Positions 8,004 through 61,805 of a stretch of 64,000 nucleotides of DNA are shown here, piece by piece. The notes beneath the pieces are model-generated. The model saw only the letters and a program-made list of their open reading frames with translations, was not told the DNA's origin and did no database searches. Each line of letters begins with the position of its first letter. The first letter of the stretch is position 1. The DNA is taken from NCBI RefSeq assembly GCF_004010195.1, contig NC_057718.1, positions 60,444,137-60,508,136 of the forward strand, given 5' to 3'. The position numbers were made by a program, and so were the translations under genes. This stretch comes from Chiloscyllium plagiosum (taxonomy: Eukaryota).

Positions 8004-8197
8004 AAAATCACACAACACCAGGTTATAGTCCAACAGGTTTAATTGGAAGCACACTAGCTTTCGGAGCGACAATCACCTGATGAAGGAGCGTCGCTCCGAA
8101 AGCTAGTGTGCTTCCATTTAAACCTGTTGGACTATAATCTGGTGTTGTGTGATTTTTAACTTTGTACACCCCAGTCCAACACCGGCATCTCCGAATC
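8004..8197. mobile_element. PLE family B fold-back (inverted-repeat) insertion
   Basis: Inverted arms of about 70 bp; TSD TTGATTATTTTA at 7992-8003 and 8198-8209. Confidence 0.9.
8074..8108 (+). ncRNA. Minimal type-I hammerhead ribozyme motif (family B)
   Basis: CAC-CUGAUGA-A-GGAGC(GUC)GCUCC-GAA-AGCU-A-GUG: full core, 5-bp stem II, stem I CAC/GUG. Confidence 0.8.
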
Positions 8198-9299
8198 TTG
8201 ATTATTTTAGTTTATTTTGATGCCAGAAAAAAACTTGCTTTGTGAGTGAAGCCATATATTCAAGATTACTCAGCCTCTGATAGTGAATGCTTTGTCTAGT
8301 TTTAATTCTGTGAGTACTCTAATCAAAACACTGTCCAAAAACCTACTCGTTGCTCATTCTGCATTATTTGTTTTCAATGAAGAAGTAACAGTAATGCAGT
8401 AAAAAAGGCTTTTTTGGTGCAAACCATACTTGGAATTTGCATATCTCAAGTGCAATGAAATAGGGGCAATGCAAGTGCATCTAGGTTGGAGGTTCAAGAG
8501 AAGAAATTGAAGCATTAATGCTGTCTCATTTCTTGTGGCCAACCATTGGCTCCAGCTTGAAAGGATCCAGATATGAAAATCAGCTGTAAATATATGCTTG
8601 GCCAAGATGTCCCAAATGGTTGAACAGTCTACAGAATGGACAACTTCATGAGGTATTGAGGACTGTCAGTCCCCTTGCAATCAGAAACAAAGAAGTTAAA
8701 TTAGATGAAAGGAATGGAACGTATGTATCTGACTATAATATGTTATGGTTGCTTTATATTTGATAGTTTTTGTGAACTTGAGTTTGAAGGATTGTGGATA
8801 CCTGTTTCTTTTTTAAATGTGGTCAATAAAGGTGCAGTTGAGGTATTTTTAATAAACTCATAAAAGATAAAAAAAAAGTTGATTTTTAACAAAGCATTTA
8901 AATCAAATATCGAGAAAGCAAAATATTGGGCATATCTGGAGCTGGCTAAGATAAATAAATTTATGTGTGGCTTGTGGAGTAGTGCATGTCGAGAAAGATG
9001 GTGTATTCCTCTTCCATCGTTATCATAACAAATAGAGGATGCATTGGACAAAATATTCGAGAACTCTCTGGATTCTGTAAGGGTTTTGTTGGATTAGAAC
9101 CACATTATGTGATAGCCTGTTCAAGAGGTGATGGAGAAAGAAAGTAAGAAACTATAGTCCAGTTAGCTTTACATCTGTCATTGGGAAAGGCTAGGATCCA
9201 TTCCTAAGGAAGAAAAAGCAGGACATTTATAAAAGCTGAACATAATCAGAGACAACATGGTTTTGTGAAAACGAAAAATGTTGAGAAGATGATTCCACA

Positions 9300-9600
9300 T
9301 TGCAGTAAACTGCTACCTCACAGCGGCAGGGACTTGGGTTTGATTCCACGCTCTGTGACTATCGGTGTAGAATTTACATGATCTTCACATGTTTGCATGG
9401 GCTTCCTCTGGGTGATGTTTCCTTCCACAATCCAAGGATTTGCAGTGTAAGTGGATTGGTCATGGAAAACATGGGATTATGGGGGTAGGGCTAGGGGGTG
9501 GTGGTGAGGGATGTGGGTTCTGGGTATGAACACTCTTTGGGGGTGGGGGGGGATCTGTGTGGAATTGATGTACCGAATGGTCTGCTTACAGACTATATGA
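9300..9600 (+). mobile_element. Decayed HE1-type SINE (preceded by a CR1 RT fragment at about 9100-9290)
   Basis: CTGCTACCTCACAGCGGCAGGGACTTGGGTTTGATTCC head and SINE body. Confidence 0.7.
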
Positions 9601-10311
9601 TGACTTGGCTAAAGGACTGATTGGCCTAGTTCACAAAGATCATGGACTAAATCTACCTTGGCTCCCGAGGACAATTCAAATTGGTCACACATGCTCAGGA
9701 GTCTGCACGTTCACAGTGGATCTGAGCAGAAAACAGCAATGTCATTCATGTACAGAGAGGTTTTGACCTGCAGGCCTCTTCTGCCTGGAATAGTCACCCC
9801 TCTCAGGCTCACATCCTTTGTGACTGCCTTGGCAAAAGCCTCTATACGAACATGCAGACAAAGCAGGAGAGAGTGTGCAGTCCTGCCGAACTCCAGGTCT
9901 GATCAGGGAGCTTCCTGTTGATTGAGGCTGCACGAATGATGTTGGTATAGGGCAGTTGGTCAAATTGTAGATTCCCTCCCAAAAGCCGATTTTGGAGAGC
10001 ATGCCTCTCATGTAGGTTTGTAACATCCTGTCAAAGGCTTACTCCTGGTCCATGATGATGAGGCAAGCATCCATTCCCCCTGTCCTGCATGTAGGCGATC
10101 CAATCACTGAGGCTGTCAGAGATCATCTGCCTGCTACAGGGTAGGTTTAGTCGGGGTGAATCAGCAATCCCAGAGCAGACCTGACCTGGTTGGCTATGAC
10201 CTTAGATCAGACTTTGTAACCTACATTCAGTGAAATTGGTTACAAATTTTTAACTTCCTTCCTATCTTCATTCTGCTTGTAGATGAGGATGATGATACCT
10301 TTCCTCATGGA

Positions 10312-11125
10312 GTTAAAAATCACACAACACCAGATTATAGTCCAGCAGATTTATTTGGAAGCACTAGCTTTCAGAGCACTGCTCCTTCATCAGGTGGTTG
10401 TGGAGTGTAAGATCCTAAGACACAGAATTTATAGAAAAAACATTTACAGTGTGATGTACCTGAAATTATATATTGAAAAAGACCTGGTTTGAATTTGTAC
10501 TTGCAGAATTGCATTGTACTTTGCTCAAAAACTGCATGAATCCATGTAAGATTCTGTAAATCTATTTTCTAGATTAGAATCAGTCTGACCATTGGGGCAC
10601 AGACAGCCTCACGCAGGGCAGCTCACACCTTAAATGCATTTTCTGGGATGACATGACACCAATTGTTAAAGTTCACTTGAGAATGTAACTTTTAAATGTT
10701 CTGCGATCTACATATGAAATAACTGAAACCAACGTCTTCATTCTAAAAGATGAAAGATTTAACAAACAATCCAGGTCTTTTTCAATATATAATTTCAGTT
10801 ACATCACACTGTAAACTTCTTTCTATAAATTCTGTGTCTTAGGATCTTATACTCAACACCTGATGAAGGAGCAGCAGTCTGAAAGCTAGTGCTTCCAAAT
10901 AAACCTGCTGGATTATAACCTGGTGTTGTGTGATTCCTTATTCCTGATGAAGGGTTTTTGCCCGAAACATCGATTTCAAAGCTCATTGGATGCTGCCTGA
11001 ACTGCTGTGCTCTTCCAGCACCACTAATCCAGAATCTGGTTTCCAGCATCTGCAGTCATTGTTTTTACCTACCTGATTCTTAACTTTGTACACCCCAGTC
11101 CAACACTGGCATCTCTAAATCATTG
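10312..11125. mobile_element. PLE family B fold-back insertion within the Tx1 LINE
   Basis: Inverted arms at about 10312-10490 and 10770-11120; TSD CCTCATGGA at 10303-10311 and 11126-11134. Confidence 0.85.
10941..11073 (+). mobile_element. PLE family A copy nested in the family B arm
   Basis: TTC-CTGATGA-AGGGTTTTTGCCC-GAAACATC; flanked by TGATTC(C)TTA duplication. Confidence 0.85.
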
Positions 11126-11865
11126 CCTCATGGAATCGCACATGCTACCTGCCAGAAGTGTACATCATATACCTCCAGTAGGTCCTGACCACTCAAGTCG
11201 CAAAGACGTAAATAATACTTGGCCAGTAAGCCGTTGCTTCCAGGAGGACCATGGTTTGATCATCAAGAGATAGCAGCTGGTCTAGCCTCTCTTGCGTGCT
11301 GTTGTCTGGCCCTCCGTGATAGAAGACAGGAATGATTGGAAGGCTGCCCTGTCTGAGGACTTTGTGCCATACAGTCTGGTATAAAAGGGTTTGCTGATCC
11401 TCAGGATGTCATTCTGCGATGATGTTACTGAGCCTCGTTTTTCCTCAGGCTGCTGAACACAGAGCTCTCCCTGTGCACCTTCTGGAAGAAGAAGCATGAG
11501 CACGTCTCATCCTGCTCCAACTCGGAGGCCTCCGAGGCAGAGGGCGAGGCTTGCTGGCTCCTCACCTCCTGGAGATCCTCTGTGACATCAACCCCCATCG
11601 TCTGCAGCAGATGTAGGTTCTGCATGCTTTTCTGGAGTTTGGTCAGTTTTCCCAATCTCCTCCCTTACCTTCCGAACACCTTTGAGCATAAGGAACCACT
11701 TGATGTTCCCCTTGACTGTTTCCCACCAGTCTGCTTGAGATTCAAAGAAGGCCTTCATGGTTCTCCAACCTGTGTAATCCCTTTTGAGCTCCTCAATGTT
11801 TTGTGGGTTCAACAGTTTCATGTTCAGCTTGCACATTCTCTTGCCAAATCACTGGACATTCTGTA

Positions 11866-11996
11866 GGTGACAGTGAGGACTGCAGATGATGGAGATTAGA
11901 GTTGAGAGTGTGGTGCTGGAAAAACACAGCAGGTCAGACAGCATCTGAGAAACAGGAAAATCAATGTCTCAGGCAAAAGCCCTTCATCAGGAATGA
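11866..11996 (-). mobile_element. PLE family A copy within the Tx1 LINE
   Basis: GAGGACTGCAGATG..GGAAAAACACAGCAGGTCAG..GCCCTTCATCAGGAAT. Confidence 0.8.
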
Positions 11997-12904
11997 ATCA
12001 ATGACAGTCAGCCAGCAGGAGGCAGTTGTCAGAGAAGAACACTGGATTGCCATTGGTGGATCTCAGGGCACAAACAGGAAATCTATCCTTGAGCGGATAG
12101 ACCCGTCTGGCCATGACCAAGTGTATCTACACTGCATTCCATCTGCAAGCATGCTGAAAGTGTCATGCAGCCTGGCAAGGTTATCCATTTCCATCGGGAA
12201 TCTGGACATGGCGTCCGGTTTGCTCTGAGCCCGTCCAGATTGTCCATCCATATCAATGATGCAGTCGGAGTCTCTGGCCAGAATGACCAGCTTGGAAGTC
12301 GCCAGTAGCAGTGGGAGCTACTGTAAGCTGGTCAGCCGCTCATTCTTTACCTCTGGGGCATACATGGTGTCAGGGGAGTGTGTCTGCACATAACATCTAC
12401 TACAAGGACAAGACTGCCATCCACCTACTTAACTTCAGAGATGATAGAGTTGCCTCCTCACAGCAGAATACCCTAGCCAAAGGAACGGCGATCAGTTGCC
12501 TGACTCCTGCCCCGTGCCATGAGAATGTGGTGAGGTTGTTGCATGTCTGACATGAAATTCTGTGGACAGGGTGCAGTGGGGTTGTGGGCACCACATCTTG
12601 AGCATAACCTAAGGTGTTGGTCACTGCTGTCCAAGATAGTTGCCCAGAGGTGCAAATGAGGTGAGTCCGGTACCTGATACCTGGTACGAGCTACCTGCTG
12701 TGACTTTCATGTCAGCACTTGTTGCCATTGAGTTTCTCTCTGTTGTGTGCGAGAATCGGAAACTGAACATAAATGAGGTGAGATATTGCACAAATTACAT
12801 GTAATTGTATGCAAATCAACTTATTGCGGCTCATTAGTGAAATTCTCATCTTGCTGTTCAAATCGCAATTGTAAGAACTGACTTCTTTTTCTCGATGTTG
12901 CGAA

Positions 12905-17438: not shown

Positions 17439-17772
17439 GGCATGGTGGTTCAGTGGTTAATACTGCTACCTCACAGCACCAGGGACTTGGATTTAATTCT
17501 AGCCTCAGTCAACTGTCTGTGTGGAGTTTGCACATTCTCCTTGTATGTACTCTCCGAATGCTCTGGATGCCTCCTACAGTCGAAAGGTGAGCGGATTTGA
17601 TGGATTGGCCATGCTCAATTGCCCATAATGTCCAAGGATGTGCAGGCTAGGTGGTTTAGACATGGGAAATGCAGGGTTACAGGGAGTGGGTCTGGGTGGG
17701 ATGCTGTTCAGAGAGTCGCTGTGGACTCGATGGGAATAGCCTGCTTCCATACTGTAGGGAGTCTATGATTCA
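17439..17772 (+). mobile_element. HE1-type SINE
   Basis: tRNA head, conserved core, CTGTAGGGA..CTATGATTC tail. Confidence 0.85.
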
Positions 17773-17836
17773 ATGATCCCTGCTGGCATTGCACTGTGGG
17801 CTGTGAGCTGCAGAGCAGCAAAGGCAATAGTTAAGT

Positions 17837-18182
17837 AGAATCATAGAATCCCTACAGTGTGGAAACAGGCCCTTTGGCCCAACAAGTCACACCGACACTC
17901 CGAAGAGTAATCCACCTAGACCCATTCCCCTCCCCTATTATCCTACATTTACTAATGCACCTAACCTACACATCCCTGAACACTATGTGCAATTTAGCAT
18001 GGGCAATTCACCTAACCTGCACATCTTTGGATTGTGGGAGAAAACCAGAGTACCCGGAGGAAACCCACATAGACACAAGGAGAATGTGCAAACTCCACAC
18101 AGACAGGTGCCCGAGACTGGAATCGAACCTGGGTCCCTATCACTGTGAGGCAGCAATGCTAACCACTGAGCCACCATGCTGG
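17837..18182 (-). mobile_element. HE1-type SINE
   Basis: Full-length copy, inverted relative to the 17439-17772 copy. Confidence 0.9.
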
Positions 18183-20930: not shown

Positions 20931-21253
20931 AAGTCTTATGTTCTTGAACTGGGTGAGCCAGGTGCCAACCGCAAAAAGGAATGTCACTATTAGCCCATGC
21001 AAATCAGAATGCTATGATATCAATAGTACCTCAGTTTTTGGTCGCATTGCAGTTTGTGAAAAATTTACGAAAGATTGTTTATATTATATTCAATTGCCTA
21101 ATGTATTCCTGCTTAAGACGATTGACTGTTGCACTGACAGTTAAGAACTTTTGTAAGTGCTGTGACATTCATTGAATTGAAATAATGAAGTGAGTTTGAT
21201 TTCAATATGATGGCTATTGCAGATTGATGGGCATTGCTTATCAGAAATTATGG

Positions 21254-21387
21254 AGAAAGTGAGGATTGCAGATGCTGGAGATCAGAGCTGAAAATGTGTT
21301 GCTGGAAAAGCGCAGCAGGTCAGATTCTCCTGTTCCTTAGATGCTGCCTGACCTGCTGCGCTTTTCCAGCAACACATTTTCAGCTCA
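21254..21387. mobile_element. PLE family A fold-back insertion (ribozyme core absent)
   Basis: Inverted arms; 15-bp TSD TATCAGAAATTATGG at 21239-21253 and 21388-21402. Confidence 0.9.
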
Positions 21388-22149
21388 TATCAGAAATTAT
21401 GGCCAAGTCTAGCTATCAAAGCTATCTTGTTGTATGAGCTACCAGATAAAATATCCTATGGAGGCAAAAAAGAAGTAGGAGACAAAGGTTTTGGTCAAAG
21501 ACATTGATACTACCAGTGAGGTTCATGGACTTGTGCTAAAAATCACATAAACTGAACAAAATGGGATTCAGAAGGTTGACCATCATCCAGAAGCATGCTA
21601 TGTATTTTGTACAAAGTTGTGCAAGGTTAATGAAATTGTACCAATAAATGTTGCTTTGGAAATGAAAAAAAAAACACTATTGCTACAGCTAAATAAATCA
21701 CAAACTATTAATTATGTAAACATGCTGGATCCACGTGTCTCCCATGGTATTGCTCCCAGCATCCTTGAGATTATTGTTTTGTAATGGTATTATAACATGA
21801 CACACACTGCACATTATTGTACTGCTGAGGCAGATCTGTGTTTAAACCTGTCACTTTATGGCCAAAAAGTCTAGTTGTTGTAATTAAACACAGCCTGAAG
21901 GGTTTCATTGGTCTTTGGTAAGGGGAGTTTTGAATTGACAGATGCTTGTGAGTTTTCAGCTCCAGCTCTGATAACAGCTACACTGAATTTATATTGTGCA
22001 TTCTCTTTTACTATTATATTTTAAAGTGTATTCTTTATATATTCTCAAATTATTGTATATAGCAGCTTTAAATTCCCCAAAATTACTCTGATATATTTTC
22101 ATAGATAGTTGTACCTTTAACAGGAATGGCAGCATCCCCAAGGTTACAG

Positions 22150-26736: not shown

Positions 26737-27510
26737 AAACAAAGGATTGTGAATCTAAAACCAAAGCTGAAAGTACTGGAGAAACTCAACAAGTCTGGTA
26801 AAATCTGTCGAGAGAAAGCAGAGTTAATGTTTTGCGTCCAGTGACCCTTCTTCAGTTCTCACAGAATCCCTACAGTGTGGAAACAGGCCCTTCAGCCCAA
26901 CATGTCCACAGCCCACCCAGACCAGTAGCCCAAATCAGCCCTTCCTGAAGAAGGGCTCACGCCCGAAACGTCGATTCTCCTGCTCCTTGAATGCTGCCTG
27001 ACCGGCTGCGCTTTTCCAGCAACACATTTTCAGCTCACCACCCAGACCTGTTCCCCTGCTCTATTATCCTATATTTACCCCAAGTCGAAAGTGAAGACTG
27101 AAGATGCTGGAGATTAGAGTGGTGCTGGAATGAAGGGTTCCTGCCTGAAATATCGCTTTTCCTGCTCCTCGGATGCTGTCTGACCTACTTTGCATTTCCA
27201 GCACCACTTTAATCTTGACTCCATATTTGCTCCTGACTAGTGCACCTAACCTGCACATCCCTGGACACTAGGGGCAATTTAGCATGGGCAATTCACCTAA
27301 CCTGCACATTTTGGATTCTGGTGGAAACTGGAGCACCCGGAGGAAACCCACGCAGTTACGGGGGGAATGTGCAAACTCCGCACAGACAGTCGCCTGAGGT
27401 TGAAATTGAACCCAGGGTCCTAGTGCTGTGAGTCAGCAGGGCTAACCACTGAGTCTCCGTACTGCCCCTGAATACCTGCTGAGTTTCTCCAGCATTTATA
27501 TTTTTGATTT
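26737..27510. mobile_element. Nested cluster: PLE family D fold-back containing an HE1 SINE (26862-27468, minus), which itself contains two PLE family A insertions (26941-27036 and 27084-27222)
   Basis: Family D arms at about 26740-26858 and 27470-27510; SINE pieces are collinear around the family A copies; CCACCCAGACC duplicated around the first family A copy. Confidence 0.75.
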
Positions 27511-28527: not shown

Positions 28528-30328
28528 GTTAAAAATCACCAGATTATAGTCCAACAGATTTATTTGGAAGTGCAAGCTTTCGCAGTGCTGCTTCTTCGTC
28601 AGGTAGCTAGTGGGGCAGGATCATAGGACACAGAAGTTATAGTAAAAAGTTCGAAGTGTCATACAACTGATGCGATGTATTGAGCAAATTGCTGGATTGC
28701 TGTTAAGTAGTCAATTAGAATGAGTTGCAGGTTTTGATTCATTAATATGTAAATCCCAGAACTTCTTTCAAGTCACATTCCAGAGATAACCTAAGGTTTT
28801 ATAAAAAAAAGTGACACCTCCGCTCAGACAATGCTGTCTGTCTGAATTCCAACCTCGTGTCGCACTGTTTCTATTTCCAAAGTGGGAATTTAAGAAATGT
28901 CACATGGACTGACTGCTTAAAGATTGTGTGCTTTTTGAACAAAATGGAATGTATCTGCAAATACAACTCTGCAAATGCAAATTCACCCTATAGACTTATA
29001 TATATGTGTGTGTGTATGCATGTGAGGGAGAGACAAATGAGAGTGTGTGTGTGAGTGAGAGAGAGAGAGGCAGAGAGTATGTGAGTGTTTGTGTGTGTGT
29101 TTGTATGTGTACTTGATAGAGTGTGTGCATGAATGTGACAAAGTATATGCCTATGAGAGGATGTGTGTGTGAGTATATGTCTGAAAGAGAGGGTCTGCGT
29201 GCATGTGTGAGTGTGTAAGAGTGTGTGTGTATGCATTCATATCATAGAATCATAGAATCCCTGCTGCATGGAAACAGACCATTTGGCCCAACAAGTCCAC
29301 ACTGACCCTCCTAAGAGTATCCCACCCAGACCCATTCCCCTACCCTATTACTTTACATTTCACTGACTAATGCACTTAACATACAAATCCCTGAACACTT
29401 TGGGCAGTTTTGCATGGCCAATCCACCTAACCTGCACATCTTTGGACTGTGGGAGCAGCACCCTGAGAAAACCCATGCAAACACAGGAAGAATGTGTAAA
29501 CTCAACACAGACAATTGCCTGAGGCTGGAATCAAACCTGAGCCACCATGCATTGTTGCATATCCCGAAGTCTGCTGTGGAGGATGGTTTCCCGAAGATCC
29601 AAGGCTGAATGTCCTTGACTGCTGAAGTGTTCCCTGACTAGGCAGGAACACCCCTGTCTGGCAATTGTTGCATGGTATCCATTCATCTGTTGTTGTAGCA
29701 TCTGCTGGGTCTCACCAATATACCATGCCTCAGGGCAACCTTGCCTGCAGCGTATGAGATAGACAACATTGGCAGTGTCACTCGAGTACCTGCAGTGCAT
29801 GTGGAGTATGGTGTCCCCACGTGCGATAGTAGCATCCATATCGACACTCTGACATGTCTTGCAGTGGCTGCCACAGCAGGGTTGTACGGTGTTGTGGTTG
29901 ATGGTGTCCTGAAGGCTAGGCAGTTTGCTGTGAACAATGATCTGTTAAAGGTTTGGCAATTGTTTAAAGACGAGAAGTGGAGGCATAGGGAAGATCTTGG
30001 TGAGGTGCTCATCATCATCAGTAACATGTTGCAAGCTGCGAAGAACATGGTGTACTTTCTCCGTTCCTGGGAAGTACTGGACAACAAAGGGTACCCTATC
30101 AGTTGTATCCTGTGTCTGCCTTCTGAGGAGGTCATTATGGTTTCTCGCTGTGGCATGTTGGAACTTTAACTATAAATTCTCAGTCCTATGATCCAGCCCA
30201 CTAGCGACCTGACAAAGGAGCAGCGCTCTAAAAACTTGTACTTTAAATAAGCCTGTTGGACTATAACCTGATGTTGTGTGAATTTTAACTTTGTCCACTC
30301 CAGTCCAATACCAGCATCTCCACGTCAT
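28528..30328 (-). mobile_element. PLE family B (Neptune-like) with GIY-YIG endonuclease remnant, fold-back, HE1 SINE inserted at 29240-29550
   Basis: ANVVYLIRCRQGCPEAWYIGETQQ GIY-YIG motif with upstream Cys-rich linker; TG-rich UTR at 29000-29235; short inverted arm at 30168-30328. Confidence 0.85.
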
Positions 30329-39345: not shown

Positions 39346-39347
39346 TC

Positions 39348-40420: not shown

Positions 40421-40443
40421 AATTAAAATAAAGATGGTGTAAG

Positions 40444-42944: not shown

Positions 42945-43180
42945 TAAAAAATCACACAACACCATGTTATAGACCAACAGGTTTATTTGGAAATACTAGC
43001 TTTCAGAGCGCTGTTCCTTCCTCCGGTGACTAGTGAAGCAGGATCATAAGACGTAAAATTTATAGCAAAAGATCAGTGTCATGCAAATGCATAACATTTC
43101 CCCAAAACAGGTTCTGAAGAAGGGTCACTGGACCAGAAACATTAATCTAATTTCTCTCCACAGATGCTGCCAGACCTACA
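42945..43180. mobile_element. PLE family B (minus, 42945-43090) and family D (plus, 43111-43180) fragments
   Basis: GTT-CTGAAGA-AGGGTCACTGGACCA-GAAACATT-AAT decayed hammerhead at 43111-43146. Confidence 0.75.
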
Positions 43181-43511: not shown

Positions 43512-43665
43512 CGAAAGTAAGGACTACAGATGCTGGAGATTAGAGTCGAGAGTGTGGTGCTGGAAAAGCACAGCTTTTGGATGATTCCTGATGAAGGGCT
43601 TTTGCTGAAACATTGATTCTCCTGCTCCTCGGATGCTGCCTGACCTTTTCCAGCACCACACTCTC
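43512..43665. mobile_element. PLE family A fold-back insertion
   Basis: 16-bp TSD AACACATATGTAAGGG at 43496-43511 and 43666-43681. Confidence 0.9.
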
Positions 43666-43722
43666 AACACATATGTAAGGGTCTCATTCCATCACCTCCT
43701 TTTAATAACATTAAAATAATGT

Positions 43723-44319
43723 TCAAAGTTTGTGCAAAGATTTGTAGCTCGGGTGCTCGATGTTGTGGTTCTGTTCGCCGAGCTGGAAGTTTTTGTTGCA
43801 AACGTTTCGTCCCCTGGCTAGGCGACATCATCAGTGCTTGGGAGCCTCCTGCGAAGCGCTTCTTTGATGTTTCCTCCGGTGTTTATAGTGGTCTGTCCCT
43901 GCCGCTTCCAGTTGTCAGTTTCAGCTGTCCGCTGTAGTGGTTGGTATATTGGGTCCAGGTCGATGTGTTTGTTGATGGAGTTTGTGGATGAATGCCATGC
44001 CTCTCGGAATTCATGAATTCGACTGGGACAACACTACTATCATAGGGCAAGCCAGACAGAGAACAGCCAGGGAATTCCTAGAGGCATGGCATTCATCCAC
44101 AAACTCCATCAACAAACACATCGACCTGGACCCAATATACCAACCACTACAGCGGACGGCTGAAACTGACAACCGGAAGCGGCAGGGACAGACCACTATA
44201 AACACCGGAGGAAACATCAAAGAAGCGCTTCGCAGGAGGCTCCCAAGCACTGATGATGTCGCCTAGCCAGGGGACGAAACGTTTGCAACAAAAACTTCCA
44301 GCTCGGCAAACAGAACCAC
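43723..44319. mobile_element. PLE family C (Penelope/Poseidon-like) fold-back insertion
   Basis: Near-perfect 253-bp inverted arms (43760-44012 and 44072-44324); HEFDWDNTTII..REFLEAWHS..INKHIDLDPIY endonuclease C-terminus; 16-bp TSD AACATTAAAATAATGT at 43707-43722 and 44320-44335. Confidence 0.9.
44247..44286 (+). ncRNA. Minimal hammerhead ribozyme motif (family C); mirror copy at 43798-43837 on minus strand
   Basis: GCA-CUGAUGA-U-GUCGCCU(AGCC)AGGGGAC-GAA-ACGU-U-UGC. Confidence 0.8.
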
Positions 44320-44991
44320 AACATTAAAATAATGTAGTATCCCGTGTGTGAATTTGCCAAGTCATTTGCTTCATCATGATGCCAATACACGATGAACCAA
44401 CATTTCTCATGCTTGATTGGTGATTACTTCAGCCCTAATGAAAGGGGATGATAATGGATTAATGGGAGTGAGCCAGTGTACTACTTTGTTGTTTTACCGT
44501 GTAAGAAATCTTCAAGTTATTTAAGGCATACCTGGTACTACGTGGGTAGATGGTCTGTTGGATATATTACCTTCATATTGGTTACTGAGCTTCATGTCAT
44601 CTACCTTGCTCTCAACATCAGTTGATACCTTGGCTGTCCATCTCAAGCAGACCTCTTCGCTGCACAATGTTTTGCAGAACACAGCACACCAGTAACATTC
44701 TGGACTTTTGTTGAAAGTGAATGTACGGAAAGATGTCTGGGTACTTGATGTACATTTTCAGCATATCCATGGGTTGCTCTATAACAATTTTTAGTAGGGT
44801 TTAAGGAAAACGTTATAAGAGTATTGAGGTTTAAAATAGCAATATTGGAGTTAAGTTAGCATTATAAATGACTTTCATGTCCAGTCACCAAATTGAGTTA
44901 AGTTAGCATTATGAACAAAATGATCATGATCTGTGAACTTGAGGTAATTCCAGCATACGCTAACAATCAGAGCAAGAGTGTCTTCCACAAA

Positions 44992-49100: not shown

Positions 49101-49751
49101 NNNNNNNNNNNNNNNNNNNNNNNNNNNNNNNNNNNNNNNNNNNNNNNNNNNNNNNNNNNNNNNNNNNNNNNNNNNNNNNNNNNNNNNNNNNNNGTTGGAA
49201 TATTGTGTGCAATTCTGGTCTCTTTCCTATCGGAAAGATGTTGTGAAACTTGAAAGAGTTCAGAAAAGATTTACAAGGGTGTTGCCAGGGTTGGAGGATT
49301 TGAGCTATAGGGAGAGGCTGAACAGGCTGGGGCTGTTTTCCCTTAAGCATCGGAGGCTGAGGGGTGACCTTATAGAGGTTTACAAAATTATGAGCGGCAT
49401 AGATAGGGTAAATAGGCAAACTCTTTTCCCTGGGGTCGGGGAGTCCAGAACTAGAGGGCATAGGTTTAGGGTGAGAGGGAAAAGATATAAAAGAGACCTA
49501 CAGGGCAACATTTTCACACAGAGGGTGGTACGTGTATGAAATGAGCTGCCAGAGGAAGTGGTGGAGACTGGTACAATTGCAACATTTAAGAGGCATTTGG
49601 ATGGGTGTATGAATAGGAAAGGTTTGGAGGGATTTGGGCCGGGTGATGGCAGGTGGGACTAGATTGAGTTGGGATATCTGGTCGGCATGGACAGGTTGGA
49701 CTGAAGGGTCTGTTTCCATGCTGTACATCTCTATGACTTTATGACTCTATG
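46190..49751 (+). mobile_element. Near full-length, inactivated CR1/HER1-like LINE (ORF1 about 46240-47160; ORF2 about 47310-49660)
   Basis: ORF1 with Cys motif, coiled coil and SGNH esterase motifs (CCLPGARIKD, VIVHIGTN); ORF2 endonuclease (NARG, AITETW, YYRP, SDHN) and RT start (KSPGPDQVYP); CTATGACT tail; several stops and frameshifts. Confidence 0.95.
48698..49193. other. Assembly gap (N run)
   Basis: 496 consecutive N. Confidence 1.
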
Positions 49752-49954: not shown

Positions 49955-50085
49955 TGAGTTTTGATAAGATTTGTAGCTCAGGTTGAAGTTCTGGATGTAG
50001 GTTTGGTCACTGAGCTGGAAGGTTCATTTTCAGACATTTTGTCACCATACTAGGTAACATCTTCAGTGAACCTCTAGATGAAGCT
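49955..50085 (-). mobile_element. PLE family C-related short copy
   Basis: AAGATTTGTAGCTC tail shared with family C; decayed CA-CTGAAGA-T-GTTACC..GGTGAC-AAAATGTC-TG ribozyme. Confidence 0.7.
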
Positions 50086-50109
50086 TCCATGAATTCTCCT
50101 TAAGAACTT

Positions 50110-51745: not shown

Positions 51746-51748
51746 TAT

Positions 51749-52291
51749 AGGCAAAAGTGAATACTGCAAGCTGCTGGAAATCAGAGTCTAGATTAAAGGT
51801 GCTGGAAAAGCACAGCAGGTCAGGCAGCATCCGAGGAGCAGGAAAATCAATGTTTCAGGCTAAAGCCCTTCATCAAGAATGAAGGCAGGGAGCCTCCAGG
51901 CTGGAGAGATAAATGGGAGGGTGGGGTGGGGCTGGAGAAAAGGTAGCAAAGAGTACAATAGGTGGATGGGGGTGGGATTGAAGGTGATAGGTGAGAGAGG
52001 AGCGGAGAGGGAGGAAGGAAGATTGGCAGATAGGACATTCACCCATTGTACTTTTTGCTACCTTTCCCCACCCTCCTCTCTGACCTATCACCTTCTTCCC
52101 CACCCCATCCACCTATTGTACTCTTTACTACCTTCTCCCCAGCTCCACCTCCCCCCTCCCGTTTATCTCTCCACCCTGGAGGCTCCCTGCCTTCATTCCT
52201 GATGAAGGGCATTTGCCTGAAATGTTGATTTTCCTATTCCTCGGATGCTGCCTAACCTGCTGTGCTTTTCCAGCATCATTCTAATCTAGAG
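51749..52291. mobile_element. PLE family A fold-back with purine-rich UTR
   Basis: Diverged inverted arms of about 200-240 bp; 14-bp TSD TCATGACTGGATAT at 51735-51748 and 52292-52305. Confidence 0.9.
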
Positions 52292-52401
52292 TCATGACTG
52301 GATATGTCAGGACTGTGCAGCTTAGATCTGATCCATCAGTTGTAGGATTGCTTACTTCCACTGATAGCAAGTTGAAATTTAGCAAGTACGTAGTCTAGTG
52401 T

Positions 52402-52632
52402 AGTTGAAACTTTATTGCTGGAACAGCACAGCAGGTCAGGCAGCATCCAGGGAACAGGAGATTCGACGTTTCGGGCACAGGCCCTTCTTCAGGCACAGAG
52501 AAGGGCCTGAAGAAGGGCCTGTGCCCGAAACGTCGAATCTCCTGTTCCCTGGATGCTGCCTGACCTGCTGTGCTGTTCCAGCAATAAAGTTTCAACTTTG
52601 ATCTCCAGCATCTGCAGACCTCACTTTCTCCT
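52402..52632. mobile_element. Very young PLE family A fold-back
   Basis: Perfect 93-bp inverted arms (52402-52494 and 52505-52597), 10-nt loop, hammerhead core CUGAAGA-A-GGGC(CUGU)GCCC-GAA-ACGU-C on both strands; TSD CGTAGTCTAGTGT. Confidence 0.95.
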
Positions 52633-52641
52633 CGTAGTCTA

Positions 52642-55078
52642 GTGTACAAAGTTAAAAATCACTCAACACCAGGTTATAGTCAAACAGGTTTAATTGGAAG
52701 CACACTAGCTTTCGGAGCGACGCTCCTTCATCAGGTGATAGTGGAGGGCTCAATCGTAACACAGAATTTATAGCAAAAATTTACAGTGTGATGTAACTGA
52801 AATTATACATTGAAAAATTGATTGTCTGTTAAGCCTTTCATCTGTTAGAATACAGTGATAGTTTCACTTCTTTCATGTGTAAATCACAAAATCTTTTTTT
52901 TAAAAGTTGCATTCTCGGGTTAGCTGTTAACAATGGTGACAGCTAGACAATATGTTGAAGGTGTTGGCCTCCTGTGTTCTCTGTCTATGCCATGATGCTT
53001 AGATTGATTCTAATCTAAAAAGTGAGATAACGGAGTTCTACATAATTTCATGCAGTTTTTGAGCTCAGAGTTCTACATGAATGCATGCAGTTTTTGAGCA
53101 ACGTACAATGTAACCCTGCAAGTACAAATTCACCCCACAAAATATATGTGTGCATGTGGGTCTTTGTCTGTCTATGTGTGTGTGTCTGTCTGGGTTGGGG
53201 GTTGTGAGTGTGAGAAAGTGTATGTGTGTGTGTGTAGTGAGTGCAGAGTGTCTTAAGTCTGTGAGGGGGTGCATGTGTGAGTGTGGGAGTGTGTGTGTCT
53301 GTAAGGGTGTGTGTGGGGTCTGTGTGCGCATCTGTATGTATCTGTGTCCGTGTGTATGTGAGAGTGTGTGTATGTAGGAATATCTGTGTGTGTGTGTAGT
53401 GCAATGGTGATCACTTGTAATGTGACATGAACCCAAGGTCCCAGTTGAGGCCCTCCTTATGGGTACCGAACTTAGCTACCAGCCTCTGCTCAGCCACTTT
53501 TCTCTGCTACCTGTCCTGAAGTCCACCTTGGAGGATGGTCACCCGAAAGTCCGAGGCTGAATGTTCTGGACCACTGAAGTGTTCCCCAACTGGGAGGGAA
53601 CCCCCCCTGTCTGTTGATTGTTGTGCGGTGCCTATTCATCCGTTGCCATAGCCTTTGCTCGGTTTCCCCAATGTACCATGCCTCCGGGCATCCTTGCCTG
53701 CAACGTATAAGATAGACAACGTTGGCTGAGTCACATGATTACCTGCCATGTACAAGGTGGAAGGTGTCCCCACATTTAATGGTGGTATCCATGTCCACAT
53801 TCTGACACGTCTTGCAGCATCTACCATGACAGGGTTGTATGGAGTTGTCCTGAGAGCCGGGCAGCTTGCTACGAACACCGATCTGTTTGAGGTTTGGCAG
53901 TTGTTTAAAGGCAAGTAGTGGATGTGTGGGGAAGGTCTTGGTGAGGTGCTCATCCTCATTGATAATGTGTTGCAGGTCACGAAGAACATGGCGTAATTTT
54001 TCAGCTCCTGGGAAGTACTGAACAACGGATGAATGGGCACCACACAACAATCAACAGACAGGAGGGTTCCCTCCCAGTTGGGGAACACTTCAGTGGTCCA
54101 GGACATTCAGCCTCGGACCTTCGGGTGACCATCCTCCAAGGTGGACTTCGGGACAGGCAGCAGAGAAAAGTGGCCGAGCAGAGGCTGATAGTTAAGTTCC
54201 ATACCCATAGGGAGGGCCTCATCCGGGACCTTGGGTTCATGTCACATTACAGGTGACCACTATTGCACTATGCACACACCCAGATACTCCTACACACACA
54301 CAGATACTTCTACACACACACACACACACACACTCTCACATACACACGGACACACAGACGCGCACACAGACACCCACACATGCCTTTACAGACACACACA
54401 CTCCCACACTCACACATGCACCCCCTCACAGACTTAAGACATTCTGCACTCACTACACACACACACATACACTTTCTCACACTCACAACCCCCAACCCAG
54501 ACAGACACACACACATAGACAGACAAAGACCCACATGCACACATATATTTTGTGGGGTGAATTTGTACTTGCAGGGTTACATTGTACGTTGCTCAAAAAC
54601 TGCATGCATTCATGTAGAACTCTAAGCTCAAAAACTGCATGAAATTATGTAGAACTCCGTTATCTCACTTTTTAGATTAGAATCAATCTAAGCATCATGG
54701 CATAGACAGAGAACATAGGAGGCCAACACCTTCAACATATTGTCTAGCTGTCACCATTGTTAACAGCTAACCCGAGAATGCAACTTTTAAAAAAAAGATT
54801 TTGTGATTTACACATGAAAGAAGTGAAACTATCACTGTATTCTAACAGATGAAAGGCTTAACAGACAATCAATTTTTCAATGTATAATTTCAGTTACATT
54901 GCATTGTACATTTTCGCTATAAATTCTGTGTTACGATTGAGCCCTCCACTATCACTTGATGAAGGAGCGTCGCTCCGAAAGCTAGTGTGCTTCCAATTAA
55001 ACCTGTTGGACTATAACCTGGTGTTGTGTGATTTTTAACTTTGTACACCCCAGTCCAACACCGGCACCTCCAAATTAT
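52642..55078. mobile_element. PLE family B (Neptune-like) 2.4-kb fold-back with GIY-YIG remnant
   Basis: Arms at 52642-53645 and 54023-55048; minus-strand PCHGRCCKTC linker and VVYLIRCRQGCPEAWYIGETEQ; CA-rich UTR; TSD GTAGTCTAGTGT. Confidence 0.95.
52703..52737 (-). ncRNA. Minimal hammerhead ribozyme motif (family B), intact; mirror copy at 54953-54987 has a C3U change
   Basis: Identical to 8074-8108. Confidence 0.8.
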
Positions 55079-55517
55079 GTAGTCTAGTGTTGTTGCTTTA
55101 ATAGGCTGACCCCTCTTTTGGTCACAATGGTTCTTTCTGGTATGTTCCCTTATTGAAGCAAAGTTGGTTGATCAGAAGTATGGTAATTGTGGGATCCAGG
55201 ATTCACTGAATCATCAATTCAGATATTTTCTATGAAAACTGATCAGAGATATTTTAATACACCTGTGGAGCATTTGGGACTTGAACCCAGGCCTCTTGGC
55301 TCAGAGGTAGAGATATGACCACTGTGCCACAAGAATGCCCAAGTCATGAGTTCACAAATTGTACTTGAATATAATTCACCTGCTGTTGGTCCACATTGTC
55401 TCATGGATCCCCTGTTTTGAGCTATATCTATCGTCATCTGCCACAAGCTCAGAACAACAGATATGTCCTTCAGTACGTGTTTGTTTGGATTGAACTGAAA
55501 TCATGTCTCTTCTTGTC

Positions 55518-57139: not shown

Positions 57140-57975
57140 TAGAGTCATAGGGCCATAAATTGTATAGCATGGAAACTTACCCTTCGGTCCAACTCGTCCA
57201 TGACAACCAGGTATCCTAAATCAATTTAGTCGCAACTGCCAGCATTTGTCCCATGTCCCTTGAAACCCTTCCTATTCATGTATCCATTCAAATGCCTTTT
57301 AAACATTGTAATTGTACCAGCTTCCACCACTTCCTTGGCAGCTCGTTCCATACACGCACTACCCTCTGTGTCAAAAGATTGCTCCTTAAGTTCCTTTTAC
57401 ATCTTTCCTCTCTCACCTTAAACATATGCTTTCTAGTTCTGGACTCCCTACCATTGGAAAAAGACTTGCCTATTCACCCTATCCATGTCCTTCATGAATT
57501 TATAAATCTCTGTAAAGCCAACCCTCAGCCTCCGACACTCCAGGGAACATAGCCCCAGCTTATTCAGCTTATCTCAATAGTTCAAACCCACAAACCACAG
57601 CAACGTCCTTGCAAATCTTTTCTGCACCCTTTCAAGTTTAACAATATCTTTCCTACAGCAGGGAGAATAGAACTGAACAAAATGTTCCAAAAATGGCCTA
57701 ACCAATGCCTTGAACTGACACAATGTAGCATCCCAATTCCTACACTCAATGCACTGATCAATAAAGGCAAGTGTACGAAATACCTTCTCCACTACCCTGG
57801 CTCCACCTTCAAACCTGCACCCCAATGTCTCTTTGTTTGCGACACTCCCCAGGATCCTACCATTAAGTGTATAGGTCCTGTCCTGATTTGCCTTATTAAA
57901 CTGCAAAACCCTACATTTATCCAAATTAAACCCAATCTGCCATTCCTCAGCCCATTGGCTCAGCTGATCAAGGTG
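57140..57975 (-). mobile_element. CR1 3' fragment
   Basis: DKCRVLQF..YTLNG..LVRPFLEHFVQF peptide and tail. Confidence 0.85.
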
Positions 57976-58523
57976 GCCAGTGGGGCTGCTGAGTGCTGAG
58001 GAAGGGCATTGAAAAGCCCCTGAAATCCTGTCCCAGTTGTTTTTGTGACATATTAGATTCTCTAGACTTTATCCCTCACAGTTCCTCACCCCACACTCTC
58101 CTCATGCCATGACCATACTAGCTCAAGCCAACTCATGCCACTCACACCTTCAAAGGCGCCTTATATCTTCCATGTGAAATTATTGTCAACTGATGCCTAC
58201 TCACCAAGGATCCACTTGGGAGACCACAAAAGCTATGTTGAGATTCAGCAAAAATAACAGTTTTCATATCAGTTACAACCTTTACTATATTAAGAAAGCC
58301 GCACACACATAAGTGAAAGCATATTCAAAACTTTGAAGTTCCCTCAATTATTATTGACCAAATGAAGGGCTCAATCAAATTGTGAATTCAAGATTCTCAT
58401 CTGAGATCTTGGTAGTGTGGAAAACAACCAAGCATTATGAATGGCATAATGAGAACTCGGTGGCTGATGTCACAAGACACTATTATAAATACCAGAACAG
58501 ATATTTTTCAACTTTCACTTACT

Positions 58524-59122
58524 CATAGAGTCATAGAGTCATAGAGATATACAGCATGGAAACAGACCCTTCGGTCCAACCTGTCCATGCCAACCAGATA
58601 TCCCAACCCAATCTAGTCCCACCTGCCAGCACCCGGCCCTCCAAACCCTTCCTATTCATATACCCATCCAAATGCCTCTTAAATGTTGCAATTGTACCAG
58701 CCTCCACCACATCCTCTGGTAGCTCATTCCACATACGTACTACCCTCTGCATGAAAAAGCTGCCCCTTAGGTCTCTTTTATACCTTTCCCCTGTCACCCT
58801 AAACCTATGCCCTCTAGTTCTGGACTCCCCGACCCCAGGGAAAAGACTTTGCCTATTTATCCTATCCATACCCCTCATAATTTTGTAAACCTCTATAAGG
58901 TCACCCCTCAGCCTCCGACGCTCCAGGGAAAACAGCCCCAGCCTGTTCAGCCTCTCCCTGTAGCTCAAATCCTCCAACCCTGGCAACATGCTTTTAAATC
59001 TTTTCTGAACCCTTTCAAGTTTCACAACATCTTTCCGATAGGAAAGAGACCAGAATTGCACACAATATTCCAACAGTGGTCTAACCAATGTCCTGTACAG
59101 CCGCAACATGACCTCCCAACTC
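58524..59122 (-). mobile_element. Young CR1/HER1-like 3' end
   Basis: Open ORF2 C-terminus (LYRTLVRPLLEYCVQFWS...WNELPEDVV) and repeated CTCTATGA tail. Confidence 0.95.
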
Positions 59123-60859
59123 CAGCAGAATATTTTATAACATTAAAGGTCTTCTCAGCTTGAGTTTTTGTCTTACCTTTCTTTGATACAGATGAACTAT
59201 TTATTTTTTACAGGGCTGGGGAGTTAAATAATTTTATATTATGTCAGTTTTAAAACCTTATTGTTCATCAAGAGCATTTATGACTACTCCAAAATTCTGT
59301 CACATGCACATTGCACGTTAAGGTCCTTGCTACACTGAAAGTGAGATCTAATTAAACTTAGTACTCAGTTGAAATGATCCTGTTGAGTTTGGGTTTCTAA
59401 CATGTAGGAGTAAGGCCTTGGCTCCTTTTATCAATAAACTGGAATATGTTGGTAATGGTACAGAAACTTCCAAATTAAGTTCTGCTTTCCACATTTGTAT
59501 TAAAATTTGGACCTGTTTTTGCAGGACATTGATAAATAAACACTATAATGTGAACTGTAAACAAAAAAATTTAAATCTGCTATCAAGAGGGGTACATTGG
59601 GTTCCAAGAGATCAATTGCGTTAGGGGACTCTCTAGTCTGAGGTACGGACAGACGTTTCTGTGGCCAGCAGAGAAAAAGTCAGAATGGTGTGTTACCTCC
59701 TTAGTGCCAGGATCAAGGATGTCTCAGAGAATGCAGAATGTTCTCAAGGAAGAGAGGGATCAGCAGGAGGTCATTGTACACATTGGAACCAATGACATAA
59801 GAAGGGAAAAGGATGAGATTCTGAAGGGAGAATATAGAGAGTTAGGCAGGAACTTAATAAGGAGGTGCTCGAGAGTAGTAACAAGCTGGTGAGTGAAGAA
59901 ATAGGAGGATGGAACAGATGAATGCATGGCTGAGGAGCTGGTGTATGGGGGAAGGATTCACATTTTTGGATGATTGGAATCTCTTCTGGGGTAGAAGTGA
60001 CTTGTACAGGGAGAGATTGCACTTGCATTGGAAGGGGACTCTCGTATACTGGCAGGGAGATTTGCTAGAACTAGTCTGGAGGATTTAAAATGGTAAAGTT
60101 GGGGGGGAGGGAGGAGGGTCCCAGTGAGATAGTGAGGAAAGGTATTAATCTGAGACTGGTACAGTTGAGAACAGAAGCGAGTCAAAAAGTTAGAACAGGC
60201 AGGGACAAAACAGAGAACAAGGGAGAACCGATAAATTAAACTGCACTTATTTCAAAGTAAGAATGCCTAACAGGGAAGGCAGATGAAGTCAGGGCATGAT
60301 TAGGAATGTGGGACTGGGATATCATATCAAATACAGAAACATGGCTCAGGAATGGACAGGACTGGCAGCTCAATGTTCCAGGATACAAATGCTAAAGGAA
60401 GGACAGAAAGGGAGGCAAGAGAGGAGGGGAAGTGGTGTTTTTGATAAGGGATTGCCTTACAGCTGTGCTGAGGGAGGATATTCCCGGAAATACACCCAGG
60501 AAAGTTATTTGGGTGTAACTTAGAAATAAGAAAAGGATGATCACCTTATTGGGATTCTATTACAGACCCCCTAATAGTCAGAGGGAAATTGAGAAATAAG
60601 TTTGTAAGGAGATCTCAGTTATTTATAAGAATAATCGGGTAGCTATGGTCAGGGATTTTAACTTTCCAAACATACACTGGGACTGCCATAGTGTTTAGGG
60701 TTTGGTTGGAGAGGAATTTATTAAATGTTTCTGATTCAGTATGTGGATGTACCTACTAGACAAGGTGCAAAACTTGACCTACTCTTGGGAAATAAGGCAG
60801 GGCAGGTGACTGAGGTATCACTGGGGGAGCACTTTGGGGCCAGTGACCATAATTCTATT

Positions 60860-61245
60860 TTTTTCTCTTCCCCGACACTACTACCTAACCATGATAGTGC
60901 TTATATTTTCCCCAGCACCACTGTTGTTTGTGTGCAGGTGTGAGACACAGTGAAAGACAACAGATGTACAAATCTTTATTCAATTTCCACCACCAGGAAG
61001 CAAGGAAACACCTGAGTGGCCAGTGACAAGCGGTGCCCTTCTCAAAGGGCAATGCTGTGTGATCGAAAAAGTGAAGGGGAGAGCAAGGTTTAAATCAAAA
61101 TAGAGTTGGATGGAGAAAACAAACACTCCACTCCCTGTAGTGCCCACCTCTCCCTGAACAGTTCAAAGGTGTTGGTAGACACTGCATGCTCCTTCTCCAG
61201 GGATACCTGGGCTTGGACGTAGCCGTGGAAGAGGGGCAGGCAATT
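60860..61245 (-). mobile_element. 5'-truncated Tx1-type LINE 3' end inserted in CR1
   Basis: NCLPLFHGYVQAQVSLEKEHAVSTNTFELFRERWALQGVEC..ILI* then UTR and short poly(A); 17-bp TSD with 2 mismatches at 60843-60859 and 61246-61262. Confidence 0.8.
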
Positions 61246-61716
61246 GCGACCATAATTGTATTAGTTTTAAAATAGTGATGGAACAGGATGGACCAGACCT
61301 CAAAGTTGAAATTCTAAACTGGAGGAAGGCTAATTTTGACGATATTTGGCAAGAACGTTCAAAAGCTGATTGGGGGCAGATGTTCACAGGTGAAGGGACG
61401 ACTGAAAAATGGGAAGCCTTCAGAAATGAGATAACGAGAGTCCAGAGACAGTATATTCTTGTTAGGGTGAAAGAATGCTGGCTGACTAGAGAAATTGAGG
61501 GTTTAGTTAAGCAAAAGAAGTAATGTGTTAGGTATAGACAAGATAGATCGGGTGAATCCTTAGAAGAGTATAAAGGCAGTAGGAGTATACTTAAGAGGAA
61601 AATCAGGAAGGCAAAAATGGGACATGAGGTAGCTTTAGCAAATAGAGTTAAGGGTTTTTACAAATACATTAAGGACAAAAGGATAACTAGGGAGAGAAAA
61701 GGGTCCCTCAAAGATC

Positions 61717-61805
61717 CCTGAAGAAGGGCTTATGCCCGAAACGTCGATTCTCCTGTTCCCTGGATGCTGCCTGACCTGCTGCGCTTTTCCAGCAACACAT
61801 TTCCA
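61717..61805 (+). mobile_element. PLE family A short copy with intact hammerhead core, inserted in CR1
   Basis: CTGAAGA-A-GGGCTTATGCCC-GAAACGTC at 61718-61745; TSD TCCCTCAAAGATC at 61704-61716 and 61806-61818. Confidence 0.9.

Follow-up and report, generated by a model that had tools for sequence, protein, structure and literature searches.

Minimal hammerhead motifs in the pseudo-LTRs of truncated Penelope-like elements of the shark Chiloscyllium plagiosum and their predicted same-family cleavage

Minimal hammerheads (min-HHR) in the pseudo-LTRs (pLTRs) of metazoan Penelope-like elements (PLEs) were described by Cervera and De la Peña (2014; PMC4209133), and since the motif class is already known, the catalogue value of further examples is modest. 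A 64,000-nucleotide stretch of Chiloscyllium plagiosum (contig NC_057718.1, positions 60,444,137 to 60,508,136; in the following 'the window') contains several such motifs and raises the question of which elements carry them, how many families they represent and which of them might cleave one another. Fig. S3 of PMC4209133 comprises 56 motifs with none from chondrichthyans, Craig (2021; PMC8557442) mentions sharks nowhere (0 times), and one chondrichthyan has already been screened for minimal hammerheads in a 2026 preprint (bioRxiv 2026.07.22.740005). Our search found no literature on shark PLE hammerheads, on heterodimers or on PLE transfer between sharks and flatworms; Dfam, Repbase, the whale-shark repeat library, bioRxiv supplements and Lünse 2017 may already list the families. 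High copy number together with young subfamilies, in which RNA starts, reverse transcription (RT) starts and a poly(A) site in use are recorded, makes it possible to test how Penelope elements are copied and what their ribozyme does.

Motifs of the window and the elements that carry them

A first-pass annotation of the window had read hammerhead motifs at eight places, and each of these has the quoted core, stem II, the 4-nt palindrome and the additional base following A9 (8/8); 52703 and 43798 proved to mark the 3' ends of copies on the minus strand with cores beginning at 52734 and 43834. A family-blind descriptor retrieved ten motifs, six of the ten with stem I, and none in 200 dinucleotide shuffles, while another descriptor gave six loci versus a shuffle mean of 0.095; the number of motifs in the window is above chance expectation. 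Decayed ones included, PLE-end remnants of families A to D amount to 36. The proposed Rfam hammerhead search of the window came back empty at the gathering threshold as well as at E up to 10, and at two thresholds Rfam produced only sub-threshold microRNA-like hairpin matches arising from fold-backs: its hammerhead models miss these minimal forms. The features of the window are as follows.

8001-8203: fold-back unit with a 12-bp target-site duplication, its right arm being the family B motif 8074..8108
8074..8108, plus strand: intact family B minimal hammerhead, predicted cut after 8105 (CUA)
10297..11123: fold-back unit of family B whose motifs, 10362-10396 (minus) and 10857-10891 (plus), are both intact
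10938-11060: family A end interrupting the family B fold-back 10297..11123
26763..26860, minus strand: decayed family D end
26942..26976, plus strand: family A motif in a 5'-truncated copy, with 2/4 stem I pairs; its core, its stem II and ACGU are intact
28533..30298: decayed family B fold-back containing a broken RT-thumb/linker/GIY-YIG frame at 29531-29944 (minus)
43111..43150, plus strand: decayed family D motif with a G10.1·A mismatch and ACAU instead of ACGU
43720..44324: family C1 fold-back insertion with a 16-bp target-site duplication; the tail is long in the left arm and short in the right one
43798..43837, minus strand: intact family C1 minimal hammerhead
44009..44266, plus strand: C-terminal end of a family C GIY-YIG endonuclease frame, last codons and stop inside hammerhead core and stem II
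44247..44286, plus strand: intact family C1 minimal hammerhead, predicted cut after 44283 (GUU)
49975..50072, minus strand: decayed end of the older subfamily C3, stem I UCA/UGA; absent from the first-pass annotation
51748..52293: older fold-back of family A, flanked by a 14-bp target-site duplication, with both of its motifs decayed and a 3' UTR rich in pyrimidines
52402..52634: fold-back of the young subfamily A2, cores at 52492 (minus) and 52507 (plus), both 5'-truncated within stem I; shares a target-site duplication with the adjoining family B unit
52642..55078: fold-back of family B in which either arm carries broken frames for linker and GIY-YIG; motifs 52703-52737 (minus, intact) and 54953-54987 (plus, C3U variant)
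52674..52694, minus strand: poly(A) signal of family B, ATTAAA at 52694-52689, with poly(A) added at 52677 (+29 from the predicted cut) and 52674 (+32), and a GU-rich element beyond
61714..61806, plus strand: family A end within a CR1-like LINE, with an intact core and a stem I disrupted by 5' truncation
1158-1254, 5991-6102, 11899-11996, 21247-21390, 27130-27211, 32795-33015, 38473-38577, 39386-39472, 40157-40317, 42935-43030, 43583-43669: further decayed A, B and D ends

The motifs sit in the 3' pLTRs of 5'-truncated PLEs, every family being tied to an RT/GIY-YIG frame. Families B and C possess RT motifs followed by C-terminal GIY-YIG motifs within one frame, the architecture of the Neptune and Penelope/Poseidon EN+ clades (PMC8557442), and their frames match RVT_1 (C, L103, E 2.1e-8; B, L066, E 1.1e-7); the Pfam GIY-YIG profile gave no direct match to the B and C frames and is present on some homologues. 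From families A and D only thumb, linker and endonuclease pieces were found, with a motif 104-313 nt downstream at 22 of 30 A-type GIY-YIG loci and three family D remnants lying 155-267 nt behind an endonuclease of 34-43% identity. Insertions in the window are fold-backs flanked by target-site duplications of 12-16 bp, and inverted 5'-truncated copies with a tail of 30-40 bp occur as in EN+ PLEs (PMC8557442).

Lineages, stem pairing and copy number

Of the four distinct families first proposed, the existence of several lineages stands, but their number is reduced to three, with about ten subfamilies, because A and D have their downstream tail in common and are sister lineages. A Cys-rich linker between RT and endonuclease occurs in A and B and is absent from C, and by the linker definition of PMC8557442 A and D would be sister Neptune-type lineages (D judged by its endonuclease only) and B a second Neptune type. 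In the RT tree, which contains no labelled Neptune reference, B stands apart from C and groups with shark, turtle and amphioxus rows; C appears to be of Poseidon type in a tree that likewise holds no labelled Poseidon reference.

Frame linkage and the stem columns support the view that these PLEs carry minimal type-I hammerheads whose stems show compensatory changes from one subfamily to another. Counted as copies and not as independent events, stem I.3 pairs of family C (n=16) are G-C in eight, U-A in four, C-G in three and G·U in one, those of family B C-G in 40 and U-A in four, and stem II.2 pairs of family D G-C in 16 and A-U in 13. The extra base after A9 and the G10.1-C11.1 pair are present, the pair being G-C, or G·U after CpG decay, and stem III is reduced to the palindrome ACGU or AGCU, with ACAU and AUGU as CpG-decay variants; in core, extra base 9/10.1, G10.1-C11.1 and palindromic 15.2-16.2 the shark motifs resemble the PLE min-HHR of PMC4209133. 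Cleavage triplets GUC, CUA and GUU accompany CUGANGA and GAAA cores and are of the cleavable NUH type, and over the lineages GUC, GUU, CUA and CUU occur. Divergence is lower in core than in tail columns in family B (0.027 vs 0.090) and family D (0.097 vs 0.163); in family A the core has no significant advantage over the tail (p=0.079).

The AUUC arm ascribed to family A was found in none of the three copies quoted for it (0/3): the copy at 26945 has a CUUC arm and two of four stem I pairs, and those at 52507 and 61718 are 5'-truncated and have no complete stem I. At the third position of stem I, 59 of 78 family A copies have a U·U mismatch, and full pairing is confined to subfamily A2 (GAAU). 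In the family D copy at 43114 the G10.1-C11.1 pair is broken and the palindrome reads ACAU.

The high copy number suspected from the window was borne out by exact-pattern counts over the genome, which yielded 62,625 copies of A, 12,186 of B, 11,263 of C and 110 of D, with no match to the reversed pattern of any of the four families. Exact matches thus number at least 86,000, compared with about 9,000 in Xenopus and about 4,000 in the coelacanth obtained by different search methods (PMC4209133), and extrapolation gives about 170,000 intact copies. About 80% of the copies are broken, and the copies in the genome are mostly dead. As with the PLE min-HHR of PMC4209133, one genome holds several families, most copies are single and truncated, and opposite-strand pairs occur.

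Relatives of family C

How family C came into sharks is a question of its own, and horizontal transfer from a trematode lineage into a carpet-shark ancestor, ribozyme included, is a tentative explanation to which we give somewhat less than even weight. Among the best 120 of 511 matches to the C protein the only named vertebrates are carpet sharks, followed by Trichobilharzia (55%), Dicrocoelium and Clonorchis (52% each) and cestodes (42-49%), whereas the closest non-shark matches among these 120, at 59-60% identity, bear no species name on record; identity with trematode elements is 48-55% for six of seven. The relatives of family B, by contrast, extend across shark orders and then to turtles at 46%. 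A clade of shark and trematode sequences receives 99/98 support with soft-coral and pseudoscorpion rows left out, but its node collapses when they are included. Flatworm monophyly is rejected (p=0.030 and 0.043) and trematode monophyly is not (p=0.31), so that transfer in either direction would be compatible with the trees; these contain no named teleost or reptile Poseidon, and ancient paralogy with loss fits as well.

The motif layout of family C is nearly identical to that of Clonorchis, whose protein is 52% identical, and the Clonorchis motif shown in Fig. S3 of PMC4209133 agrees with it in stem I, in the extra U, in ACGU-U and in the 6+6 layout of stem II; the shark motif differs from these rows in its stem II loop, in the internal mismatch of C1 and C2 and in host phylum. 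A metagenome scan for family C relatives returned 273 pattern matches, of which none was confirmed. If true, a fluke origin of C would constitute a parasite-to-vertebrate transfer of a ribozyme-bearing element.

Copy ends, RNA and cleavage

Taken together, we consider it probable that the motifs are minimal type-I folds in the 3' pLTRs of truncated PLEs of three lineages, mostly dead, and that the master elements likely cleave only as same-family dimers, probably with the help of protein, cleavage itself being predicted. Copy ends suggest how such dimers could arise. Short A and B copies begin 0-14 nt before the core: 56 of 188 family A starts fall in the 10 nt before the core versus two of 188 in the next 10 nt, and 24 of 75 family B starts lie at -47 to -28; no start cluster was seen in ten family C copies (0/10). 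Copies starting just before the motif suggest a hammerhead at both mRNA ends. The element mRNA would begin just before one hammerhead and end just after another, so that its two ends would be natural dimer partners, and stem I, exchanged in the dimer, would restrict cleavage to the same family. A full-length element between two direct pLTRs was not recovered, the long candidates being N gaps, and apparent frames of 929-3,474 aa, at first sight giant ORFs, were rejected as assembly gaps; the two-ended mRNA is therefore inferred from pieces.

The 3' ends are bimodal: they fall at two sites, 40-100 nt downstream of the predicted cut. This matches the PLE tail and internal RT start of the Anolis Poseidon element PAc (Frangieh 2024, PMC11167929), where two RT start sites giving the tail and an uncut template were likewise reported. 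Reverse transcription would begin internally, downstream of the 5' ribozyme and mostly on uncut RNA, and its early run-off could account for the mass of short copies. The AC-rich stem-loop of PAc (PMC11167929) is predicted in family C too; unlike in PAc, the family C motif overlaps the ORF stop. In family B the RNA carries its poly(A) 29-32 nt past a motif that is still uncut, and a GU-rich element follows: poly(T)-bearing reads number 337 at +32 and 265 at +29 after the predicted cut, in one sample and possibly from host transcripts ending in B copies. None of 76 genomic family B remnants has an A-run at these sites, and the poly(A) signal (n=56 copies) is AATAAA in 25 and ATTAAA in 17. For PAc we found no mention of a poly(A) site in use downstream of the motif (PMC11167929).

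A more far-reaching and, as a whole, doubtful proposal is that the hammerhead lies in a short terminal redundancy of the mRNA, starting just before stem I and polyadenylated about 30 nt past the cut, whose two ends would form a family-locked double hammerhead. RT would start downstream of the 5' copy and run off the uncut 5' end, yielding hundreds of thousands of short copies, and would reach the ORF either by switching to the repeat at the 3' end or through a circle, much in the manner of an LTR R region; the proposal includes entry of the C lineage with its ribozyme from flukes into carpet sharks.

About equally unlikely is that conservation of the fold chiefly reflects a function in protein binding or as an RNA-end structure, with cleavage infrequent or of no consequence for copying. 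Catalytic mutants of the Anolis element were without effect on insertion and no RNA ends were reported at the cut, although the motif cleaves when protein is present (PMC11167929). No long match (0/87, self-matches included) ends within 5 nt of the cut, only five of 188 family A copies start there, which is no excess, and family B RNA is abundant and uncut. RNA-end mapping likewise revealed no pile-up at the cut; the poly(A)-primed reads used here are blind to cut RNA, so that its absence is weak evidence either way. Against a mainly structural role stand the exact catalytic core, cleavable triplets and palindrome, preserved in lineages of about 25% protein identity.

That the common ACGU palindrome permits active A/C/D heterodimers, as the first-pass annotation had thought conceivable, is most improbable. 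The palindromes of A, C and D are compatible, and in a blind sample four of the five cases in which two intact motifs lie on the same strand within 5 kb of each other are cross-family, but a dimer necessarily exchanges stem I strands, the 5' arm of one copy pairing with the 3' arm of the other, and A/C cleavage is predicted to fail because A and C mispair at the pair flanking the cut in both directions; this pair is also lost in A-on-D, D-on-C and C-on-D. The modelled A1/C1 double hammerhead has -6.1 kcal/mol, about 8 kcal/mol weaker than the mean of the homodimers (-10.5 and -18.7), every modelled double-hammerhead fold, homodimers included, lying above the cofold minimum energy. One-way D-on-A pairing would be the sole remaining cross-family option and is possible in these models, the D 5' arm forming four pairs with the A1/A3 3' arm, two of them wobbles. 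The stem I swap would offer a simple rule why co-resident families would not cut each other.

Non-LTR retrozymes, tandem hammerhead repeats spreading as circular RNA, have type-I hammerheads derived from pLTRs (PMC7229834; bioRxiv 2026.07.22.740005) and are reported from one chondrichthyan (bioRxiv 2026.07.22.740005), and 27 direct neighbours exist within 3.5 kb, but this reading is disfavoured for the window and very improbable, as the shark copies are not tandem but fold-back or joined to PLE frames, no hammerhead-bearing tandem array was found in the window, and 36 intact motifs in 771 kb include just one same-family same-strand pair, 2.8 kb apart. With 82 divergent and 24 convergent pairs beside the 27 direct ones, neighbours are mostly fold-backs rather than tandem dimers.

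Two minor observations concern ends near the motifs. A loose read end at 44284 (five reads, one flank) was taken as one genomic copy, and a further start peak was observed at +18 in family A copies.

Hammerhead families in the window and across the genome

At each position quoted by the first-pass annotation for the four minimal hammerhead families (A to D, in the 3' pseudo-LTRs of truncated Penelope-like elements, PLEs), the hammerhead core, the single extra base past A9, the stem II hairpin and the 4-nt palindrome of the reduced stem III were present. A family-blind descriptor matched the window 10 times, against zero matches in 200 shuffles; stem I was acceptable in six of these motifs (four B, two C) and failed in all four family A motifs, three being 5'-truncated inside the arm and one having 2/4 pairs. 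Profile searches located 36 remnants, intact or decayed, within the window, where hammerhead motifs were undetected by an Rfam search and no hammerhead tandem array was found. The proposed high copy number was borne out by a genome-wide exact-pattern count of 62,625 (A), 12,186 (B), 11,263 (C) and 110 (D), with reversed-pattern controls of zero. Twenty blocks, picked at round positions and totalling 771,172 non-N bases, contained 268 remnants, and motifs were intact in 37 of the 177 motif-spanning ones (36 by descriptor). Extrapolated from these 20 blocks, the genome would hold ~170,000 intact copies and more than 1 million remnants. Family D is old (intact in 1/43), and family C is young, many copies being identical at the protein level.

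About 10 subfamilies are distinguishable across the families. That stems keep pairing while differing between families held for B, C and D, which display two-sided pair changes (B stem I.3; C stem I.3; D stem II.2 and I.2), but not for stem I of family A, where a U·U mismatch occurs in 59/78 copies and the pair is restored in the young A2. The compensatory changes are not independent from copy to copy but go back to a few events in master elements. In a comparison biased by profile selection, the core columns of B and D had diverged less than those of their tails; in A the difference was not significant.

All structural features first noted are already contained in the accessible part of PMC4209133, whose Fig. 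S3, as available, is devoid of chondrichthyans; one was screened according to the accessible part of a 2026 preprint (bioRxiv 2026.07.22.740005). Among the papers listed by literature searches, which did not extend to Dfam, Repbase, Lünse 2017 or a number of supplements, none dealt with shark PLE hammerheads. Hence we regard the families as new members of a known motif class.

Dimers and insertion anatomy

In the double hammerhead the palindrome links A15.1 of one copy with U16.1 of its partner, so that the cut base and 3' arm are supplied by the partner and, given the dimer topology in Fig. 1A of PMC4209133 (as far as accessible), the stem I strands are swapped. Natural copies mispair beside the predicted cleavage site (cut) in A-on-C, C-on-A, A-on-D, D-on-C and C-on-D, and only D-on-A1/A3 forms four pairs, two being wobbles. 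Cleavage by A/C heterodimers, formerly thought conceivable, would be disfavoured by the mispair next to the cut both ways and by a modelled A1/C1 fold of -6.1 kcal/mol vs -10.5 (A1/A1) and -18.7 (C1/C1); B1/B1 reached -17.7. Family separation would be owed to stem I more than to the palindrome. Every modelled dimer fold lies above the cofold minimum, consistent with the low, protein-assisted activity of minimal hammerheads published in the accessible parts of PMC4209133 and PMC11167929.

Of the neighbouring same-family ends <3.5 kb apart (blocks plus window), 82 were divergent, 27 direct and 24 convergent. Seven fold-backs in the window, i.e., inverted pairs of truncated copies, are flanked by target-site duplications of 12-16 bp and hence each represent a single insertion; as the two motifs of a fold-back lie on opposite strands, no cis dimer is possible. 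Just one same-family, same-strand pair <5 kb apart occurred among 36 intact motifs. Locus L056, outside the window numbering, carries two direct family C motifs 1.3 kb from each other, at 1330 and 2667 (-), and an inverted one at 2796 (+); this is the typical partial-tandem PLE layout, and the direct pair is a candidate cis dimer. Within the window were further observed:

52389-52646 and 55079-55090: one target-site duplication, three occurrences, common to A2 and B fold-backs, so that one fold-back inserted exactly at the edge of the other
10938, 43030/43110 and 40241: further nested or abutting PLE ends
53033-53099 and 54591-54657: duplicated 35-bp unit of the family B 3' UTR, beside a degenerate (AC)n tract

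RNA ends, copy starts and tails

One single-cell poly(A) run, of which ~2% was examined, gave 166 reads for family C; an A2/B stretch received 3,516. An RNA-end pile-up at the predicted cut was absent from these reads, which could not reveal cut RNA. Family B reads were strongly one-stranded (depth ~900-1,000 vs ~100 across the motif), and poly(T)-bearing reads numbered 337 at +32 and 265 at +29 nt past the cut. These poly(A) sites lie 12-15 nt past a signal (AATAAA in 25/56, ATTAAA in 17/56 copies) and 5' of a GU-rich element, and an A-run was found there in 0/76 genomic B remnants. The polyadenylated B RNAs are uncut and may be host transcripts. The A2 tail also holds AATAAA (window 52580-52590), at which no poly(A) ends were among the rows listed for the A2/B stretch.

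Copy starts, whose peaks are possibly inflated by incomplete subfamily references, clustered in family A within the 10 nt just upstream of the core (56/188 vs 2 in the adjoining 10 nt) and in family B at -47 to -28 (24/75); family C presented no cluster (0/10), and no excess was seen at the predicted cut. RNA ends and copy starts together suggest a short terminal redundancy, which would put the ribozyme at both ends of the element mRNA.

The 3' ends form two clusters per family, at about +53-66 and +97-98 in A, +55-61 and +90-95 in B, and +40-41 and +76-86 in C. These double clusters are the PLE tail, tied in the accessible part of PMC11167929 to two internal RT starts. The RT template therefore reaches across the cut site in uncut or rejoined form. 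In all four families a predicted stem-loop is closed by the long tail and has the short end in its loop, which in family C is AC-rich like that of the Anolis element.

Host elements, origin of family C and other repeats

The family B motif sits 3' of 480-597 aa frames with RT, Cys-rich linker and GIY-YIG motifs, and that of family C at the end of 420-470 aa RT-endonuclease frames without the linker, overlapping the ORF stop codon. Family A motifs lie downstream of a linker-bearing endonuclease in 22/30 loci; those of D follow a more distant relative of it (three clear cases) and have the downstream tail in common with A. By the definitions in the accessible part of PMC8557442, applied without labelled reference sequences, A, D and B are of Neptune type and C of Penelope/Poseidon type. 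No full-length element was recovered in this assembly, because long candidates proved to be assembly gaps.

Carpet-shark proteins are the closest named relatives (84-91% identity). Relatives of B extend across shark orders (66-91%) and then to turtles, whereas among the best 120 of 511 matches the named vertebrate relatives of C were carpet sharks only, followed by trematodes (48-55% in 6/7 rows, 42% in the remaining one); the matches listed further comprised cestodes (42-49%), a soft coral (46%) and proteins without organism name (up to 60%). The trees omit most rows without organism name and several near-duplicates from a 75-row quick tree. When the coral and pseudoscorpion rows were dropped, a 32-row tree joined shark and trematode elements in a 99/98 clade with cestodes outside; once these rows are included, the node collapses. 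The tests rejected monophyly of flatworms (p 0.030 and 0.043) but not of trematodes (p 0.31). Family C closely matches the Clonorchis motif in Fig. S3 of PMC4209133, as available. Judged from sequence, horizontal transfer would be a plausible origin of C.

Other repeats in the window:

17440-18179 (inverted pair), 26189-26516, 27225-27468, 29245-29539 and 46026-46189: SINE-like repeat, presumably resembling shark HE1
46243-49750, 57140-63608 and others: CR1-like LINE pieces with an endonuclease match (PF14529) that fell short of the cut-off
near 48700-49190: 496-base assembly gap
40315-40419: short tandem array, periods 17, 25 and 42, unrelated to hammerheads
11432-12300, minus strand: fragment that we take to resemble an L1/Tx1-type LINE, interrupted by a family A end
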